A stretch of DNA of 64,000 nt, taken from assembly GCA_018657525.1 (NCBI GenBank), contig JABHWZ010000002.1:84590-148589 (forward strand), read 5' to 3'. The stretch is from an archaeon. GTDB taxonomy: Archaea > Nanobdellota > Nanobdellia > Pacearchaeales > GW2011-AR1. The stretch's first letter is position 1, and every line of letters starts with the position of its first letter. A program made the position numbers and the translations under genes. Shown here piece after piece: positions 9,164 to 57,028 of the stretch. Under the pieces are notes generated by a model, which had not been told where the DNA came from, ran no database searches, and worked only from the letters and a program-made list of their open reading frames with translations.

Positions 9164-9664
9164 TTATTTACTTCCCTCAATCTTAGATTTAATTTCACTA
9201 AATGTTTTTGAAAAATCTTCTTTTAAGTTTTTCCCTTCAATTCTTTCCTGTTCTGGAAACGCTTCTTCCTTACATTGAATTTCTAATCCTGAATCAATAA
9301 GTCCTTTAATAAAAGAATAAACTTTTGTCTTGTAACTTGTTTTTTGCATTCCTAAATCCACAATCGGCGTTTCTAATTTCTTGTCTTGAATTTTTTTACC
9401 CATCAAATATCCAGTTAAATACGACGCTGGAATTGACTTTAAACTTCCTTTTGATTTTTCAGGCCACCCGCATTTTAACAACTCTTTTGAATTAAGAGTC
9501 ATTACTATTTTATCTTGAGCAGCTTCGCTTGTAACATATTGCGCAAGAGCAAACTTGTTTGATTTTCTAAAAACTAATCTCGGTTTCCCCCCCTTCAACA
9601 ATTTAAGTCTAACTAAATAATTCGTCTTCCCTTCTCTCCTTCTTCGTTTTGCTATTCTTTTCAT
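9164..9664 (-). CDS. rpl18: 50S ribosomal protein uL18 (L5e)
   Basis: KRRRREGKTNYLVRLKLLKGGKPRLVFRKSNK is the uL18 N-terminus. The ATG at 9664 forms an ATGA overlap with the upstream ORF. Confidence 0.9.
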   Translation of the reverse strand: MKRIAKRRRREGKTNYLVRLKLLKGGKPRLVFRKSNKFALAQYVTSEAAQDKIVMTLNSKELLKCGWPEKSKGSLKSIPASYLTGYLMGKKIQDKKLETPIVDLGMQKTSYKTKVYSFIKGLIDSGLEIQCKEEAFPEQERIEGKNLKEDFSKTFSEIKSKIEGSK

Positions 9665-9981
9665 TTTCTTAATCCCTCCCATATTTTTTGTAAATCTCTA
9701 TATCCTCGACATTTTTTTGTAAAGACTGGTTGAGCGGTTCTGTTTGTTCCAGGCAAAAAAAGACCTTCTTTATCAATTTCTGAAACTTCTCCTTTGTAAA
9801 TATCAAAACTGAAGACATCATCTCCCACCAAGTTTGATCTAGTTAAAACTAATTGACCTTCTTTAGGAGCATTCCCAAAGAAAAATTTTCTAAGTTCAGG
9901 ATTTCTTTCAACTCTCCCCATAAAACCTATATAATAATAATCTACTGAAGTATCATATACTCTCCCGACTTCAGCATTCAT
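9661..9981 (-). CDS. hypothetical protein (106 aa) intercalated between rpl19e and rpl18
   Basis: The ORF fills the junction exactly, with ATGA overlaps at both ends. It has no r-protein similarity and carries the SD GGGAGGG for rpl18 in its last codons. Confidence 0.65.
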   Translation of the reverse strand: MNAEVGRVYDTSVDYYYIGFMGRVERNPELRKFFFGNAPKEGQLVLTRSNLVGDDVFSFDIYKGEVSEIDKEGLFLPGTNRTAQPVFTKKCRGYRDLQKIWEGLRK

Positions 9982-10382
9982 TTTCTTAATCCTCCAATAT
10001 ACTCTTTCAAGTTTGCTTTACTTCTAAACATTTTATTTCTTATCCTCTTCCTAATTTCATTCACTTCTTCGATATTTAAGGCTTTTTGTTTTTTCAATTC
10101 ATTAACATAGGCTCTCAACTTCCGAGTCATAATCACATATTTCTTTTTTCTATCATTGACTTTCTTTCTAATATTCCCCGTACTTCTTTTAACCTTTGTC
10201 TTAATTTTTTTTCTTCCTTGAACATTCTTAATCAAAATTGCTCCATCCTTTAATAAATCCCGAATATCTTGCTTTGTAATGGCCTCTTTAATTTCTTCTA
10301 ATCGCGCTTCTACAAAATTAATTCTTGCTTTCCCCACATTTAATGTTCTTGCTGTTAATTCTTTCTTTTTCCTTAAGTTCAT
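9978..10382 (-). CDS. rpl19e: 50S ribosomal protein eL19
   Basis: LRKKKELTARTLNVGKARI...IKEAITKQDIRDL is the L19e pattern. Confidence 0.9.
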   Translation of the reverse strand: MNLRKKKELTARTLNVGKARINFVEARLEEIKEAITKQDIRDLLKDGAILIKNVQGRKKIKTKVKRSTGNIRKKVNDRKKKYVIMTRKLRAYVNELKKQKALNIEEVNEIRKRIRNKMFRSKANLKEYIGGLRK

Positions 10383-14860: not shown

Positions 14861-15262
14861 TTAATAAACCACTGAAGCGATTTTTGCAACTTGCGGCCAT
14901 CGCTCTAGAACCTCCCTTGCAATTGGTCCTTTAATCTGAGTTCCTTTTGGATTGCCTTTTTCATCTTTCAAAATAGCAACTGCATTATCTTCAAATGCCA
15001 CTCGCTCTCCGCTGTTTCTTCTCCATGATTTTTTCTGTCGAATTATTACTGCGTCAAAAACTTTCCCTTTCATGTCAGGCACGCCCTTCCGGATTGAAAC
15101 CTTTACCCAATCTGCAATTTTAGCACTTACCTGTTTAGATTTTTTAGCTTTAGCCTTTTTAACTGAAACAATTTTAACCATCTTCGCCCCACTATTATCT
15201 GCCGCGGGCATAATTGCACCGAGGTTAAAAGCTGAAGTTGTTCGCGCGCTTATTGCTTTCAT
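14861..15262 (-). CDS. rpl14: 50S ribosomal protein uL14
   Basis: ADNSGAKMVKIVSV...VFDAVIIRQKK..RR..G..V.FEDNA is the uL14 pattern. Confidence 0.95.
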   Translation of the reverse strand: MKAISARTTSAFNLGAIMPAADNSGAKMVKIVSVKKAKAKKSKQVSAKIADWVKVSIRKGVPDMKGKVFDAVIIRQKKSWRRNSGERVAFEDNAVAILKDEKGNPKGTQIKGPIAREVLERWPQVAKIASVVY

Positions 15263-15537
15263 TTTACATCCTCCCCTAATAATCCCTCAACTCTTAAATG
15301 ATTCCATGCTCTACTTCTTCTAATTTCTGCACTTTCACATCCTCCAATGCACCCACATCCTATTTGATATTCTCTAATGGTCACTTTTTCTCCATCCGAG
15401 TAAGCAAATATATTTGTTCCACATTGAGGATTTTGGCATCCAAATAAAACTCCTTTTTGCCCACTCACTAAAATATTCTGTGGGACATATGGATTAGATT
15501 CAAACCTGTGAATATCTTGAGGCCTTATTGCTTTCAT
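15259..15537 (-). CDS. hypothetical Cys-rich protein (92 aa) intercalated between rps17 and rpl14
   Basis: ATGA overlaps at both ends. Its first 14 nt are identical to the rpl14 start (MKAI). CQNPQCG...CGCIGGC is a possible metal site. The SD GGGGAGGA for rpl14 sits in its last codons. Confidence 0.65.
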   Translation of the reverse strand: MKAIRPQDIHRFESNPYVPQNILVSGQKGVLFGCQNPQCGTNIFAYSDGEKVTIREYQIGCGCIGGCESAEIRRSRAWNHLRVEGLLGEDVK

Positions 15538-15971
15538 TTTTTCTCTTCTCCAGATTTATCTTCTTTATTCAGTGTTTCACGATGCTCATGTGAAATGGAT
15601 TTAATAAACACAAAATGGATAATCTTACTCAAAGGTCGGCACTCTTGAATCTGAACTAAGTCCCCAATATTTACTGACGCTTCTAAGCATATTGGCAATC
15701 TAGCATGAAGTTTGGTTCTTGATTTAGTATATCTTTCATATTTTCTTACGTAAACTGTTCTTTCAAGTTCAATTACAATTCTTTTTTTAAATTTCTTGGT
15801 AACTGTTCCTTCAAAGATTCGCCCATGAGTTTTTAATTTTCCATGAATATTACAATCTATATCTTTGCATTCTTTCAGAGTCTCTGCTACTTTTGCTCCC
15901 TTCCGTGCTTCGCGATGCCTATGCGCAATGGCGCTTTCTGTTTTTTTCTTTGTCATTTTCTTTTCTGTCAT
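15534..15971 (-). CDS. rps17: 30S ribosomal protein uS17 with terminal extensions
   Basis: GRIFEGTVTKKFKKRIVIELERTVYVRKYERY...IGDLVQIQECRPLSK is uS17. The ATG at 15971 has AGGTGA 13 nt upstream; the alternative ATG at 16040 would overlap sui1 by 11 nt. Confidence 0.85.
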   Translation of the reverse strand: MTEKKMTKKKTESAIAHRHREARKGAKVAETLKECKDIDCNIHGKLKTHGRIFEGTVTKKFKKRIVIELERTVYVRKYERYTKSRTKLHARLPICLEASVNIGDLVQIQECRPLSKIIHFVFIKSISHEHRETLNKEDKSGEEKK

Positions 15972-16029
15972 TTTTGTGTATGTCACCTTTTTTTCCGGGC
16001 CACCTCGAAGAGGTTCTCGTGACCTTTGG

Positions 16030-16332
16030 TTATTCTTCATCTACGGAATCTTCATCAAATCCCATCTTTCCTAAAAGAGGTTTTATTCTCTTTCGATGAT
16101 CTCCTTGGAGTTCAATTCTGCCATCTTTGTAAGTCCCTCCACAAGCTAACTCATTTTTCAGAGCCTTTGCGGTTTTCTTTACATCGACGCTGTTGTCGAA
16201 CCCACTAACCACAGTAACAATCTTTCCGTACCTTTTCTTGTCGGTTGTTACCTTTATTCTTTGTGAACTTTTTACTATCTGCTCACACACACATGCTTGC
16301 TCAGGCAAGCCACATTTTGGACATATTTCCAT
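16030..16332 (-). CDS. sui1: translation initiation factor aIF1 / SUI1
   Basis: CPKCGLPEQACVCE zinc knuckle plus the SUI1 core (KRYGKIVTVVSGF...LKNELACGGTYKDGRIELQGDHR). Confidence 0.9.
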   Translation of the reverse strand: MEICPKCGLPEQACVCEQIVKSSQRIKVTTDKKRYGKIVTVVSGFDNSVDVKKTAKALKNELACGGTYKDGRIELQGDHRKRIKPLLGKMGFDEDSVDEE

Positions 16333-26157: not shown

Positions 26158-26424
26158 ATGAGAGAATCAGAACAAAGAAAAAAAATAGTAGAATACCTTA
26201 AAAGAAATCTGAAAAAAGGTTATACTCTGGACTCACTTCGTTGGGCATTAATCAATCAAGATTATTCAAAAGTTTTAATTGAAAATGCAATTGACAAAGT
26301 GCACCAAGAATTAGCAGAAAAAGCCCCAATCTTAAAAGAAAAACCAAAGATTACATATCAGATTATGGATGAAGAAGATAATCCGGTAAATTTTAAAAAA
26401 CCATGGTGGAAGTTTTTTTCATAA
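26158..26424 (+). CDS. hypothetical protein (88 aa)
   Basis: ORF with a TATA-like CTTTTAAAC about 25 nt upstream. Confidence 0.5.
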   Translation: MRESEQRKKIVEYLKRNLKKGYTLDSLRWALINQDYSKVLIENAIDKVHQELAEKAPILKEKPKITYQIMDEEDNPVNFKKPWWKFFS

Positions 26425-26462
26425 AACAAAACCTTTAAAACTCTTTCATTTCTATTTTTAAT

Positions 26463-26478
26463 ATGCCGCCATCGCATA
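26463..26478 (+). repeat. direct repeat copy 1 of ATGCCGCCATCGCATA (the tRNA-Ser 5' acceptor/D segment)
   Basis: 16/16 identical to 26538-26553, 75 bp upstream of it. Confidence 0.9.
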
Positions 26479-26539
26479 GTTCCTTTGGTCTCGCTAACGC
26501 GAACACGATGGTTAAGATAAAAGAACCAAAGAGACACAT

Positions 26540-26620
26540 GCCGCCATCGCATAATGGTATTGCATCCGGCTTGAGACCGGAGCCCTTTTGGGCGTCCCCG
26601 TTCGATTCGGGGTGGCGGCG
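26540..26620 (+). tRNA. tRNA-Ser (anticodon UGA), class II with a 14-nt variable arm; no encoded CCA
   Basis: Hand-folded cloverleaf. Acceptor GCCGCCA/TGGCGGC, D stem GCA/TGC, anticodon stem TCCGG/CCGGA with loop CTTGAGA, variable arm GCCC-TTTT-GGGC, T arm CCCCG-TTCGATT-CGGGG, discriminator G. Confidence 0.85.
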
Positions 26621-26703
26621 TTCTGGAGAATCGAACTTCGATTTCGAGCGATTTCGTGGTAGCAGGATAATCCCAAAAAAACTGCGAGCGAGATCGGGAG
26701 TCA

Positions 26704-26733
26704 GGGTGGCGGCGTTTTGTGGGAGAATCGAAC
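26704..26733 (+). repeat. direct repeat copy 2 of the tRNA-Ser 3' end plus trailer (GGGTGGCGGCGTT..GGAGAATCGAAC)
   Basis: GGGTGGCGGCGTT (26704-26716) equals 26610-26622, and GGAGAATCGAAC (26722-26733) equals 26625-26636. The copies are 94-97 bp apart. Confidence 0.85.
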
Positions 26734-26854
26734 TGGTTAAACACAGATATTTTTCTGCAATCTTTGATGTTGGGCTCTTTAATTTAATACTAAGTCAGAG
26801 CAGAATGTTTATAACTATTAATGATTAGTAGGTATAGTAAAAGGAGGTAAAAAA

Positions 26855-34916: not shown

Positions 34917-35222
34917 TTATCCAAATAGAGCACCTAGCCCTTCTGCTGCAGCTTCTTTCTTTTCTTCTTTTGGCTTCTCAGCTTTTGCTTCTCCACCTTC
35001 AGCTCCACCCGCAGGTGCGCTTCCAGCAGCAGGAGCACTAGCAACTAAACTAGCACTTGCTAATTCAGCTTCGATATCCACGTCCTTCAAACTAGCAACA
35101 AGAGACTTGATTTTACTCTCGTCCACGTCGATGCCAGCGGCTGCAACAACACTTTTGATTCCTTCTTCATTAACTTCCTTTCCTGCCTTATGCAGTAAAA
35201 GTGCTGCGTATACGTTTTCCAT
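34917..35222 (-). CDS. rpl12: 50S ribosomal stalk protein P1 (archaeal L12)
   Basis: MENVYAALLLHKAGKEVNEEGIK..., an Ala/Gly hinge, and the C-terminal EKKEAAAEGLGALFG. Confidence 0.9.
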   Translation of the reverse strand: MENVYAALLLHKAGKEVNEEGIKSVVAAAGIDVDESKIKSLVASLKDVDIEAELASASLVASAPAAGSAPAGGAEGGEAKAEKPKEEKKEAAAEGLGALFG

Positions 35223-35237
35223 TTTATTGTTTTCCTC
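35219..35237. repeat. 19-nt perfect direct repeat (CCATTTTATTGTTTTCCTC on the plus strand) spanning the stop/start junction, copy 1
   Basis: Identical to 35430-35448. On the coding strand it reads GAGGAAAACAATAAAATGG, i.e. -GKQ stop, A, ATG G. Confidence 0.9.
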
Positions 35238-35433
35238 TCCCAGAATTTAGTTCTGTTTGAGTTGAATATCTATTACAAATTTGATAATCATTTGGACAAC
35301 TCATTGCCCAGAATCGATCTATTTCACTTGCGCAGGGACTACCATCATATAAAAACGGACACATCTTTCCTTCTTCTTTCAAATTTTCAAGTCTTTGAGT
35401 AATTTCTTCTGACATTATTAAATTTTCTGCCAT
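35224..35433 (-). CDS. hypothetical Cys-rich protein (69 aa) intercalated upstream of rpl12
   Basis: There are 1-nt gaps on both sides when started at the ATG at 35433. Contains a CPF...C...C...C pattern and is flanked by the 19-nt perfect repeat. Confidence 0.6.
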   Translation of the reverse strand: MAENLIMSEEITQRLENLKEEGKMCPFLYDGSPCASEIDRFWAMSCPNDYQICNRYSTQTELNSGRGKQ

Positions 35434-35448
35434 TTTATTGTTTTCCTC
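35430..35448. repeat. 19-nt perfect direct repeat, copy 2
   Basis: See 35219-35237. Confidence 0.9.
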
Positions 35449-43063: not shown

Positions 43064-43082
43064 ATCATAGTTTCCGTTTAAT
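43064..43082. repeat. 19-nt perfect direct repeat ATCATAGTTTCCGTTTAAT (duplicate of the aIF5A stop region), distal copy
   Basis: Identical to 43131-43149, which contains the last 5 codons plus the stop of aIF5A. The copies are separated by 48 bp containing a hairpin. Confidence 0.9.
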
Positions 43083-43131
43083 TATTTTCGTTCCTTGTCT
43101 GCTGATTTTTCAGCAAGGATAGGTGCAAAAA

Positions 43132-43524
43132 TCATAGTTTCCGTTTAATGATTTTTGTACCTTCAATATCCCAGTATTCGCAATTTCCACTTTCTTCTAA
43201 AGAATCACAAACTTCTTTTTCTGGGCAATCAATATCTAAAGTTTCAAAAGATTCCATATCCATAACGCTGGCCTTTCCTTCGCTTTTTGAAAGAACCTGG
43301 CCCTTTCGTTTGTCTACCATTGGCACCTCTAGTCTATCGTGTCCAGGCACAACAAAAACTTTTTTGTTTCCAGTAATCAAACCAACAGCCTCGATTCTCG
43401 CCTTTGCATGTCCATGTTTACCTGTCTTAGAAATATCAATTTTTTTCACAACACATGGGTGTCCATCCACAATAATATTCGTCCCAACTTTTGCTTCAGT
43501 AGCGTTAATAATTTTTAATACCAT
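43132..43524 (-). CDS. eif5a: translation initiation factor 5A (aIF5A)
   Basis: Hypusination loop SKTGKHGHAKARIE. Confidence 0.9.
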   Translation of the reverse strand: MVLKIINATEAKVGTNIIVDGHPCVVKKIDISKTGKHGHAKARIEAVGLITGNKKVFVVPGHDRLEVPMVDKRKGQVLSKSEGKASVMDMESFETLDIDCPEKEVCDSLEESGNCEYWDIEGTKIIKRKL

Positions 43525-49630: not shown

Positions 49631-49673
49631 TTCGGTGTTATAAACACCGTGGGTTTGAATTAAGTAAAATAAA

Positions 49674-55919: not shown

Positions 55920-56285
55920 ATGGCATTTTTTCTACCTAAATGTATTCCTGATTATCGATTTTCAGATAAGTGGGTTCAATATTTACCTTTAATTGGAATT
56001 CCTGCAGAACTAAGGGGAAGGAGGAAAAAGAGAAATAGAATTGCAACTGATGTACAATCAGTTTCAGGAATTGCTGGGATGTTTGGAGCAGTATTGCTAT
56101 TGACTTCTTCTTTAAAAATGCCACAGACAAATCAACAATACAATCAAGCAATCACAGAAGGTTTACCTCCTGCAACTTATGAGGAAGTTCAATCTATCTC
56201 TCGAGAAAGATGGGTAAGAAAACTTGACGAATCAGATTATACTGCAGATGAAATTAGAGAATTCGTTAAAGGAGAAAGAGATTAA
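55920..56285 (+). CDS. small single-TM protein, paralog 1 of a tandem triplet (121 aa)
   Basis: Shares the C-terminal block NQQYNQ..EGLPPATYEEVQSISRERWVRKL.ESDYTADEIRE with the next two genes. It starts 1 nt after the surface-protein gene. Confidence 0.65.
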   Translation: MAFFLPKCIPDYRFSDKWVQYLPLIGIPAELRGRRKKRNRIATDVQSVSGIAGMFGAVLLLTSSLKMPQTNQQYNQAITEGLPPATYEEVQSISRERWVRKLDESDYTADEIREFVKGERD

Positions 56286-56286
56286 A

Positions 56287-56661
56287 ATGAAATCACTCCA
56301 TAATTTTATAACAAAAAAATTTCCAGATGAATGGGCACAATTGGTCCCAATTTATGGGATTCCAGCAGCGACTAGGGTTGGTGATTCATTGACTGTGAAA
56401 AGTGTTCTTACCTCAGTAATCCAATTGGCTTCAGTAGTTACAGGGGTTATTGGTTTAACTTTAACTAGTTTTGCGATTAATGATATGCCTAAGACAAATC
56501 AACAATACAATCAACTCCTCCAAGAAGGTTTACCTCCCGCTCCTTACGAACAAGTCCAATCTATCTCTCGAGAAAGATGGGTAAGAAAACTTAATGAATC
56601 AGATTATACAACTGAAGAAATTAGAGAACTAGTTAGAGGCAAATATGGAGAAAAGGAATAA
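56287..56661 (+). CDS. small single-TM protein, paralog 2 (124 aa)
   Basis: ATG at 56287, 1 nt after the paralog 1 stop. The N-terminal FPDEWAQLVPIYGIPAA block is shared with paralog 3. Confidence 0.65.
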   Translation: MKSLHNFITKKFPDEWAQLVPIYGIPAATRVGDSLTVKSVLTSVIQLASVVTGVIGLTLTSFAINDMPKTNQQYNQLLQEGLPPAPYEQVQSISRERWVRKLNESDYTTEEIRELVRGKYGEKE

Positions 56662-56662
56662 A

Positions 56663-57028
56663 ATGAAATTATACAATTTTCTAACAAAAAAAGTTCCAGA
56701 TGAATGGGCACAATTGGTCCCAATTTATGGGATTCCAGCAGCGAATAAGGTTGGTAGTGCATTGACTGTGAAAAGTGTTCTTGCCCCAGTAATCCAAATT
56801 TGTTCAGTAGTTACAGGGGTTATTGGTTTAAGTTTAATGTTAACTGGTTTTGTGCTTAATGATAGACCTAAAGATAATCAAAGATATAATCAACTTTTGA
56901 ATGAAGGTTTACCTCCTGCAACTTATGAAGAAGTTCAATCTATCTCTCGAGAAAGATGGTTAAAAAAACTTAACGAATCAGATTATTCCGCAGATGAAAT
57001 TAGAGAACTAGTTAGAGAAAGAGATTAA
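56663..57028 (+). CDS. small single-TM protein, paralog 3 (121 aa)
   Basis: ATG at 56663, 1 nt after the paralog 2 stop. Confidence 0.65.
   Translation: MKLYNFLTKKVPDEWAQLVPIYGIPAANKVGSALTVKSVLAPVIQICSVVTGVIGLSLMLTGFVLNDRPKDNQRYNQLLNEGLPPATYEEVQSISRERWLKKLNESDYSADEIRELVRERD

Follow-up and report, generated by a model that had tools for sequence, protein, structure and literature searches.

Partial copies of both tRNA ends and short structured inserts flank an intact tRNA-Ser(UGA) gene in a DPANN archaeon

How archaeal tRNA genes gain introns, become split or have their fragments scattered is an old question, and models that invoke mobile elements rest on few intermediates. The locus described here lies in a 64-kb stretch of DNA (the window, in whose numbering positions are given) which matches contig JABIAR010000001.1 of assembly GCA_018653175.1, from a Pacearchaeota/Woesearchaeota-type DPANN archaeon. 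On the plus strand of the window, an intact tRNA-Ser(UGA) gene is preceded by a copy of its own 5' end and followed by a copy of its own 3' end, with a short structured insert between each copy and the gene. We regard it as about evenly balanced whether these inserts are small non-autonomous insertions coupled to target duplications that leave one gene intact. Together with about 30 related loci, in which a short structured insert at the D-loop or T-loop is accompanied by duplication of one tRNA end and the gene survives, the locus is a clear and reproducible example of a lineage-wide, apparently undescribed uptake of short inserts by tRNA genes. The architecture appears to be unreported in that no description of it was found in the literature searched, which is absence of evidence only. 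It may show how tRNA genes acquire insertions without being destroyed.

The closest mechanistic precedent is the casposase, which targets a segment of the tRNA T-loop, duplicates 15 bp and permits tandem arrays (PMC5137440). As in casposon and CRISPR spacer integration, the target at the present locus contains a T-loop palindrome, the duplicated segment overlaps the tRNA 3' end, the target appears to be regenerated, and there is one segment per unit (PMC5137440). The 14-nt duplication at the 5' end is also near the 14-15 bp of casposons. Unlike casposons, the inserts described here are 45-90 nt long, non-coding and structured at the RNA level, the duplications vary in length and are often far longer at the 3' end (20-55 nt), and the 5' family is located on the D-loop side. 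No Cas1 or casposase gene was seen in the window and about 20 kb of flanking contig.

Elements of the SSV1 and pNOB8 type, and the tRNA-Thr fragment of Caldiarchaeum subterraneum, likewise present a direct partial copy of a tRNA end beside an intact, reconstituted gene (PMC3293823). Their repeats enclose integrase-encoding elements of kilobase size and derive in part from the element's attachment site, attP. In contrast, the repeats at the present locus, although also formed by part of the tRNA at both borders, enclose gene-free inserts of less than 100 nt (59 and about 60 nt) with no integrase between them, and they are derived from the target. Fujishima et al. reportedly described, in 2010, transposing introns with a bulge-helix-bulge (BHB) motif in tRNA genes of Thermoproteales, which form structured families common to different tRNAs at loop positions. 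Short structured insert families at loops of different tRNA genes are found here as well. However, those introns interrupt the tRNA, are excised at the BHB and cause no duplication, whereas here the tRNA is uninterrupted, there is no usable BHB, and the tRNA end is duplicated.

Miniature inverted-repeat transposable elements (MITEs) and hairpins resembling repetitive extragenic palindromic (REP) sequences are, like the inserts, small, non-coding and paired at their ends, and occur in several contexts including intergenic regions and the 3' end of a gene. A flanking duplication derived from the target is likewise present. In contrast to the many dispersed copies per genome of such elements, copy number is very low (one per about 84 kb) and the 5' family is strictly bound to tRNA-Ser; moreover, the duplications are far longer than usual, and conserved G.U pairs indicate selection at the RNA level. 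Nanoarchaeum equitans, finally, has no RNase P and leaderless tRNAs (PMC10941002). Its split and leaderless tRNA genes share with the present locus a presumed promoter at constant spacing from tRNA position 1 and fragments beside structured flanks. They differ in that the fragments here duplicate a complete neighbouring gene, the flanks lack the complementarity of split halves, and no BHB is found.

Locus anatomy and recurrence in relatives

A clean class II tRNA-Ser had been folded at 26540-26620 in a first-pass annotation of the sequence, and it was confirmed as a functional gene by ARAGORN (26539-26621) and by a full-length match to the Rfam tRNA model. The score of the latter, 51.9 bits, was obtained with relaxed filters, as the gathering scan of the 64 kb missed this tRNA-Ser through its speed filters. 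In most relatives an AMP phosphorylase gene is followed by the syntenic tRNA-Ser(UGA). The outer 5' copy (26463-26478) consists of two leader nucleotides and tRNA positions 1-14 (26465-26478). Its sequence, ATGCCGCCATCGCATA, recurs at 26538-26553 with 16 of 16 nucleotides identical and a spacing of 75, which bears out the perfect 16-mer listed by the first-pass annotation.

Downstream of the gene, 26604-26637 (34 nt) is repeated at 26698-26734 (37 nt) with three mismatches and one 3-nt indel. This repeat had been noted before and is real, but its extent had been understated: it spans the 3' part of the T-loop, the 3' strands of the T-stem and the acceptor stem, the discriminator and 17-20 nt of trailer, and includes the exact cores GGGTGGCGGCGTT (26610-26622 and 26704-26716) and GGAGAATCGAACT (26625-26637 and 26722-26734). 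In the outer 3' copy (26698-26734) the 3' part of T-loop and T-stem, GAGTCAGGG, is diverged and the T-stem mismatched; the acceptor 3' strand, the discriminator and TT are exact (26704-26716), and a copy of the trailer follows. A run of four T residues at 26715-26718 is a possible terminator. Chance was ruled out as the origin of the repeats, since dinucleotide shuffles gave an expectation of 0 matches for the 5' repeat and likewise for the 3' repeat.

The 5' insert (26479-26537, 59 nt) belongs to a family termed A1, whose core is shared with relatives. On the 3' side the trailer (26621-26637) is followed by a short T-loop-like copy, TCGATTT (26638-26644), directly 5' of the core of the 3' insert, a hairpin of family B1 (26645-26700; covariance model match at 26642-26703, 73.6 bits). 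Both intervening segments (59 nt and about 60 nt) are unique in the window. The trailer contains an anti-T-loop element, GAATCGAAC (26628-26636), complementary to the T-loop GTTCGATTC (26599-26607), and a second anti-T element lies in the trailer part of the outer 3' copy (26725-26733). A T-loop-like copy in front of the hairpin was also found in L002 (TTCGATTC) and, with the T-loop of tRNA-Pro, in L028 (TTCAAATCC); L-numbers are labels of the loci compared.

The outer pieces supply only tRNA positions 1-14 and about 57-73. No anticodon arm, T arm or second tRNA match (E<=10) was detected in them, in agreement with the earlier failure to find a T arm before the distal 3' copy or to fold a second tRNA. 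Two overlapping open reading frames (ORFs) that cover the region had been called non-coding; this was supported because they run across a tRNA, and they had no credible family matches. The same module is present in independent assemblies, which rules out the assembly artefact that had been named as a possible refutation. At least 24 contigs (38 collection blocks) encode the exact translation of the spurious ORF spanning the module, SRR3724533 yielded a Logan contig that was 100% identical over 1566 nt including the module, and a contig of the Joint Genome Institute had a gene spacing identical to that of the window. Fragments of tRNAs and spurious ORFs across them are annotation traps.

For comparison, 80 syntenic loci were gathered via the upstream AMP phosphorylase gene. 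The general layout in Pacearchaeota and Woesearchaeota comprised, upstream, a 14-nt copy of the 5' end plus an insert of about 45-65 nt, often in tandem arrays, and, downstream, a copy from the T-loop to the trailer plus an insert of about 55-90 nt. In many tRNA-Ser genes (UGA, CGA) the gene's own 5' end was repeated 55-113 nt upstream, and L013 had a further copy at 268 nt; in many, the gene's own 3' end reappeared about 80-460 nt downstream. Copies of the 3' end were also present behind tRNA-Pro, tRNA-Gly and tRNA-Met genes. Each copy carried the local, species-specific acceptor sequence, and the inserts were common to different genomes and tRNAs. Among 84 distinct tRNAs, an exact 10-nt copy of the 5' end was located upstream in 18/84, a figure inflated by 12 loci that had been chosen for the 5' insert, and an exact copy of the 3' end downstream in 15/84; none was on the wrong side.

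The 5' copy mostly ended at tRNA position 14, also across unrelated insert families, and its outer limit varied (9-31 nt). The 3' copy often began at C56 (L092, L097, L072 and L016/L018), with duplications of about 20-55 nt. All copies were within about 460 nt (459 at most), except for one lone 10-nt match 1872 nt away in L081. The distribution was patchy: most orthologous tRNA-Ser genes of close relatives had no modules, and in many of these the promoter was directly 5' of the tRNA. The 5' and 3' modules occurred independently of one another.

Locus L092 contains a separate 3' insert of about 70 nt which, with one mismatch, follows both tRNA-Gly and tRNA-Ser. After tRNA-Gly it terminates in the whole Gly 3' end, copied from C56 onward; after tRNA-Ser the copy opens likewise (CGATTCC) before the contig ends. 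As the same insert is accompanied by the ends of two different tRNAs, the copies are derived from the target and are not carried by the element.

Arrays were composed of identical tandem units (L086/L101 and L098) or of mixed insert families (L090, L092, L094 and L096), and the number of units was unequal between the near-identical strains L095 and L098. There was always one 14-nt copy per insert, with no remnant of positions 15-26 in A1 arrays. Outer copies were decayed in L089, L096, L101 and L018. Such arrays, the variation of unit number at strain level and the adaptation of inserts to the host tRNA at the RNA level make the process testable.

Canonical introns at position 37/38 (about 21-47 nt) were observed in the tRNA-Ser(UGA) genes of L004, L015, L016, L017, L018, L032, L033, L041 and L046. 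ARAGORN missed these genes when run without its intron option; with the option, L016, L018 and L041 were mis-typed as Leu or Ala.

Insert families and position of the promoter

The A1 core, CTTYGGTCTCGCTNACGCGAA, is near-invariant and common to the window, L002 and L058. When metagenomes were scanned for this core, 12 low-GC contigs were recovered; the other five matches had a high GC content and were due to chance. In 12/12 low-GC contigs the core was located after a 14-nt tRNA-Ser 5' copy and before an intact tRNA-Ser. Over all 15 contexts, which cover the four tRNA-Ser isoacceptors (UGA, CGA, GCU, GGA), it stood directly after such a copy (15/15) and in no other setting, and the full inner 5' end was present in 15/15.

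In the window, A1 forms a helix P2 (26483-26489/26525-26531, extendable to 26479-26489/26525-26535) and an invariant hairpin P3 (26491-26494/26499-26502), and its segment CGATGGT (26506-26512) is complementary to tRNA positions 4-10. Throughout the family, ...ACGCGAA is followed by 7-9 nt that are the complement of tRNA positions 4-12 and vary together with them. For positions 4-7, 36 of 48 cells paired with their own tRNA, compared with a mean of 2.1/4 with other tRNAs (permutation p ~5e-5). The proposed structure, composed of the helix between 5' copy and antisense segment, the closing stem and the invariant hairpin, was 91% paired in a 12-sequence alignment as against at most 38% with partners slid. 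Compensatory changes were found at four pairs of the helix between 5' copy and antisense segment, and the observed covariation score was reached by 0 of 500 shuffles. The order of strands is that of an H-type pseudoknot in which an A-rich loop precedes the final strand; the strands in the window are 26468-26474/26506-26512 and 26479-26489/26525-26535. The invariant 17-nt core exceeds what pairing alone demands.

Several candidates for a known function or source of the inserts were rejected. The A1 unit has the a-b-(hairpin)-a'-b' topology of a ribozyme of the hepatitis delta virus (HDV) type, but it lacks the conserved J4/2 cytosine and its L3 loop has only 4 nt. No Rfam ribozyme family was matched in 26400-26800 (cmscan, E<=10), where only the tRNA and two chance-level matches were returned. 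A C/D-box guide RNA was dismissed as the CUGA and UGAUGA strings are not kept across the A1 family. Two scans of viral contigs for a viral or plasmid source of the inserts gave only chance matches in high-GC contigs.

The B1 alignment comprised eight copies (window, L002, L014, two in L021, L024 and two in L028). The main helix (26649-26656/26689-26696 in the window; inner helix 26662-26665/26680-26683) was 100% paired, with five compensatory pairs and a U.G pair kept in 8/8. Covariation and the conserved U.G pair thus indicate selection on RNA of the tRNA-sense strand. Three B1 copies are located away from tRNA 3' ends: in L014 the hairpin lies inside the 3' end of an 88-aa gene, to which it supplies a new stop codon, and in L021 two copies occupy an ordinary intergenic region.

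Excision by splicing was considered with BHB criteria of 3-nt bulges and a 4-bp helix, the cut rule having been checked by hand on the canonical intron of L015. The scan yielded no motif able to excise either repeat period. Excision exact to the period is impossible because the strands of the central 4-bp helix would be identical 4-mers, none of which is self-complementary. The best BHB-like candidates mirror the complementarity between trailer and T-loop, and their products are not tRNAs. One candidate, UUUC/GGAG with bulges of 3 nt, lies beside the 3' hairpin in the window, L002 and the tRNA-Pro locus of L028; it was rejected, as it was 62.5% paired across the family and showed no covariation, and its predicted product is not a T arm. 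The inner tRNA is contiguous from 26540 to 26620, with no intron interrupting it.

Trailer elements of the anti-T type vary in step with the T-loop sequence in L028 Pro (GGATTTGAAC), L046, L053 and the tRNA-Pro trailer of the window. As a clade-wide feature the anti-T-loop trailer was discarded (mean of 6.8 bp vs 6.1 bp in shuffles); it is clear in a subset that includes both window tRNAs. In the trailer of tRNA-Pro(UGG) (49632-49661), the hairpin CGGTGTTATAAACACCG precedes CGTGGGTTTGAATT, an anti-T-loop element that is not associated with a duplication. This element (49648-49661) pairs with the T-arm of the same tRNA, GGTTCAAATCCGCG, over 14 bp including G.U pairs. A pairing of leader and trailer beyond the copies (GGUCUCGCU/AGCGAGAUC) was judged coincidental because both strands sit in elements that occur independently. 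A motif GAATC(G/T)(A/C)ACTGGTTAAA(C/T) was observed downstream of tRNA-Ser in the window (26734-26760), L002 and L005, with or without a 3' module.

A TATA-type box, TTTAAAA (26435-26441), ends 23 nt upstream of G1 in the outer 5' copy. Where tRNA-Ser genes had no 5' copy, such a box ended 22-28 nt before G1, with a mode of 24, in 28 of the 36 genes in which one was detectable. Where copies were present, the box stood at the standard distance from the outermost one in 11/16, and a box ahead of the inner tRNA was hardly ever seen. Given the established geometry of archaeal promoters, the box probably acts as the promoter; the transcript should therefore begin at or beside the outer copy, and the inner tRNA would then carry a structured leader of about 75 nt. 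The 5' module is thus probably transcribed as a long leader.

This leaderless-type placement of a promoter that would drive a 75-nt leader raises the question of 5' maturation in relatives of Nanoarchaeum; N. equitans and the archaea studied here are presumably members of the same GTDB phylum. Archaeal Rpp29, a protein of RNase P, is usually encoded between SUI1 and S17. No Rpp29 gene was present between SUI1 and S17 in the window (15534-16332), which, as one gene position, is a weak and indirect test. The S17 ORF of the window has an unassigned N-terminal extension of about 48 residues.

Origin and role of the duplicated ends

Three origins had been proposed in the first-pass annotation, an interpretation that is supported in part. 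Among them, short insertions with long target duplications fit best, given the shared insert families, the local sequence of the copies and the footprint at gene junctions. On this reading, two small, non-coding, structured insertions would have occurred in one functional tRNA-Ser(UGA) gene, one at either end, in the D-loop (position 14/15) and in the T-loop/T-stem region. Every insertion would directly duplicate the tRNA segment from the insertion point to the gene end, and a complete gene would survive 3' of the 5' insert and 5' of the 3' insert; the outer pieces are copies of the target, not exons. Since only gene-sparing outcomes would be viable for a single-copy tRNA gene, the strict polarity is accounted for. 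Tandem arrays would arise because the 14-nt target is regenerated at each A1 insertion.

The antisense segment, pseudoknotted with the insert's own stem, is predicted to pair with the redundant 5' copy. Most plausibly it sequesters this copy in the precursor, so that it would not rival the real 5' strand in forming the acceptor stem. Release of the tRNA would depend on end-processing nucleases, not on splicing.

Insertion coupled to duplication is favoured by the same arrangement of an insert between two copies at gene junctions of the window, and by an A1 core that is near-identical across genomes whose AMP phosphorylases are only about 50-68% identical (68% to the window for L002, about 50% for L058). 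The inserts are dispersed elements; one insert is present twice in L092, and L021 has two B1 hairpins. The following points weigh against this reading: (i) no integrase, transposase or Cas1-like gene was found among window ORFs of at least 230 aa; (ii) the lengths of the duplications vary (9-31 nt at the 5' end, about 20-55 nt at the 3' end), unlike a fixed transposase stagger; (iii) the B1 hairpins at non-tRNA sites (L014, L021) are not accompanied by a long duplication; (iv) A1 and B1 inserts are each single-copy in about 84 kb of this genome; (v) the dead copy reaches past the insert in L011, L013 and L072, so that some duplications may predate the inserts; (vi) the antisense segment of L089 fits the inner tRNA better than the outer copy, and by reading of the sequences the same may hold for L096; (vii) the identity of outer and inner copies across species could reflect gene conversion or selection. 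In the contig flanks beyond the window, neither further tRNAs nor further copies of the hairpin were found.

A bolder version is speculative and, on present evidence, unlikely. According to it, the units of 14-nt 5' copy plus insert and their 3' counterparts would be a new class of miniature insertion elements, specific for tRNA genes and regenerating their target, with an antisense segment that guides insertion or neutralises the duplicated end; or the 5' unit would be a cis-acting processing module, possibly catalytic, which frees the tRNA 5' end in archaea that may, like Nanoarchaeum, lack RNase P. If either were true, the loci would represent present-day intermediates on the way to disrupted tRNA genes, whether intron-containing or split.

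Four other explanations were weighed, which in decreasing order of weight invoke a host function, duplication before insertion, remnants of attachment sites, and introns or split genes, the last being largely excluded. The modules might be conserved leader and trailer elements of the pre-tRNA that are used by the cell. The outer copies would then pair in an additional stem of the acceptor type, and the inserts would guide maturation, set its timing or regulate it, perhaps replacing RNase P in this Nanoarchaeum-related lineage; alternatively, the 5' unit would be a small RNA acting on tRNA-Ser. We consider such a function rather unlikely, although a number of observations point to it. The minimum free energy fold pairs the outer copies over 11 bp (z = -2.9), covariation and conserved G.U pairs indicate selection at the RNA level, and the size of the invariant A1 core beyond the needs of pairing is consistent with a further task. 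The putative promoter at the outer copy, with a tight spacing between box and G1 as in leaderless tRNA transcription, and the missing Rpp29 gene at its usual place agree with this view, as does the best fit of the antisense segment to the functional tRNA in L089 and possibly L096. However, the absence of RNase P is read from a single gene position, and the patchy distribution, the independence of the two modules, the strain-variable number of units and the decay of outer copies are not what a conserved host element would lead one to expect. In L002, a run of five T residues directly after the inner tRNA would end transcription before the 3' module. Nor was a known ribozyme recognised, the HDV-like topology being without the catalytic C.

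Partial tandem duplications of tRNA ends could also have arisen on their own, by slippage at the palindrome of T-loop and anti-T-loop or by decay of tandem UGA/CGA pairs, and the dead copies could later have been colonised by hairpin repeats as safe sites. Nine relatives do have tandem tRNA-Ser genes (UGA/CGA pairs) at this syntenic site. L072 and L064 contain long dead copies, which start near position 9-10 and run to the 3' end, with two insertions in the former and one in the latter; it is in these two loci that a decayed tandem tRNA can be aligned along its length. In L011 and L013, an upstream dead copy reaches to position 25-26 or so and has the insert within it. At the window locus, too, the 3' side could be taken as a tandem repeat of 37 nt whose second copy contains the hairpin after its first 7 nt, and the B1 hairpins without a long duplication at non-tRNA sites fit such a sequence of events. 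On the other hand, among about 100 loci none had a partial duplication free of an insert. Independent duplication is also argued against by the A1 arrays, in which each insert has exactly one 14-nt copy and nothing is left of positions 15-26, and by the common boundary at position 14 across unrelated insert families. Finally, an Rfam search gave no tRNA signal in the window inserts, which form conserved families of their own. Duplication as the first step is therefore doubtful.

Less probable still are remnants of integration, the outer copies being repeats of the attL/attR type left by a plasmid or virus and the inserts the leftovers of the element. Integration into archaeal tRNA genes does leave repeats of the tRNA terminus, such as the 44-bp repeat of SSV1 or the tRNA-Thr-F of Caldiarchaeum (PMC3293823), and tandem arrays separated by the target are typical of serial integration. 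The proposal of the first-pass annotation that these are remnants of integration events is supported only loosely; direct repeats are present. Yet the inserts of 45-90 nt contain no ORF, the copies are close together (apart from the match in L081) with no recombinase between or near them, and one insert carries the ends of different tRNAs in L092. Insert cores were absent from the viral contigs scanned except for high-GC chance matches, and size and structure are kept across species, unlike leftovers of random deletion.

A non-canonical tRNA gene, in which the genuine exons would be the outer copies and the introns would comprise the inserts together with the inner copies, or which would consist of the split or nested pieces envisaged at first, is very improbable and largely refuted by geometry: the promoter at the outer 5' copy, the canonical 37/38 introns common in tRNA-Ser genes of this clade and the BHB-like site around the 3' hairpin would favour it, but the complete inner tRNA has the score of a normal tRNA, a period-exact helix would have to form between identical non-self-complementary 4-mers, the BHB-like helix is incompletely paired and without covariation, every BHB candidate yields a non-tRNA product, the outer pieces have neither T arm nor anticodon arm, the T-stem of the outer 3' copy is mismatched, and in L089 the D-stem would be broken by the outer 5' copy.

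Other repeats and unfamiliar reading frames

Small ORFs without a known family are wedged into gene junctions of the window, each between perfect copies of the junction (ribosome binding site plus start of the next gene). These are a Cys-rich ORF of 92 aa between S17 and L14, flanked by two copies of the 17-nt sequence AAAATGAAAGCAATAAG; an ORF of 106 aa between L19e and L18, flanked by two copies of GGATTAAGAAAATGAA (16 nt); and a Cys-rich ORF of about 70 aa flanked by two copies of the 19-nt repeat GAGGAAAACAATAAAATGG. The junction ORFs are located at 15249-15551, 9660-9992 and 35219-35448. The gene tables of L105 and L106 contain many further unfamiliar small ORFs between ribosomal protein genes.

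Another short-range arrangement of an insert between two copies is found at 43064-43163, where a 33-nt direct repeat (ATCATAGTTTCCGTTTAAT.ATTTT.GT.CCTT) is 91% identical with a spacing of 67 nt. At 56086-57017, three to four tandem repeats of about 370 nt are 74-91% identical and correspond to a run of ORFs of about 121-127 aa in the gene table of L103. Just past the right end of the window (L103/L104, 1619-4330), two successive toxin-antitoxin pairs of the nucleotidyltransferase/HepT-like type are each followed by an unfamiliar protein of about 490-680 aa. In the same loci, a MazE/ParE pair adjoins an S-layer-like gene.

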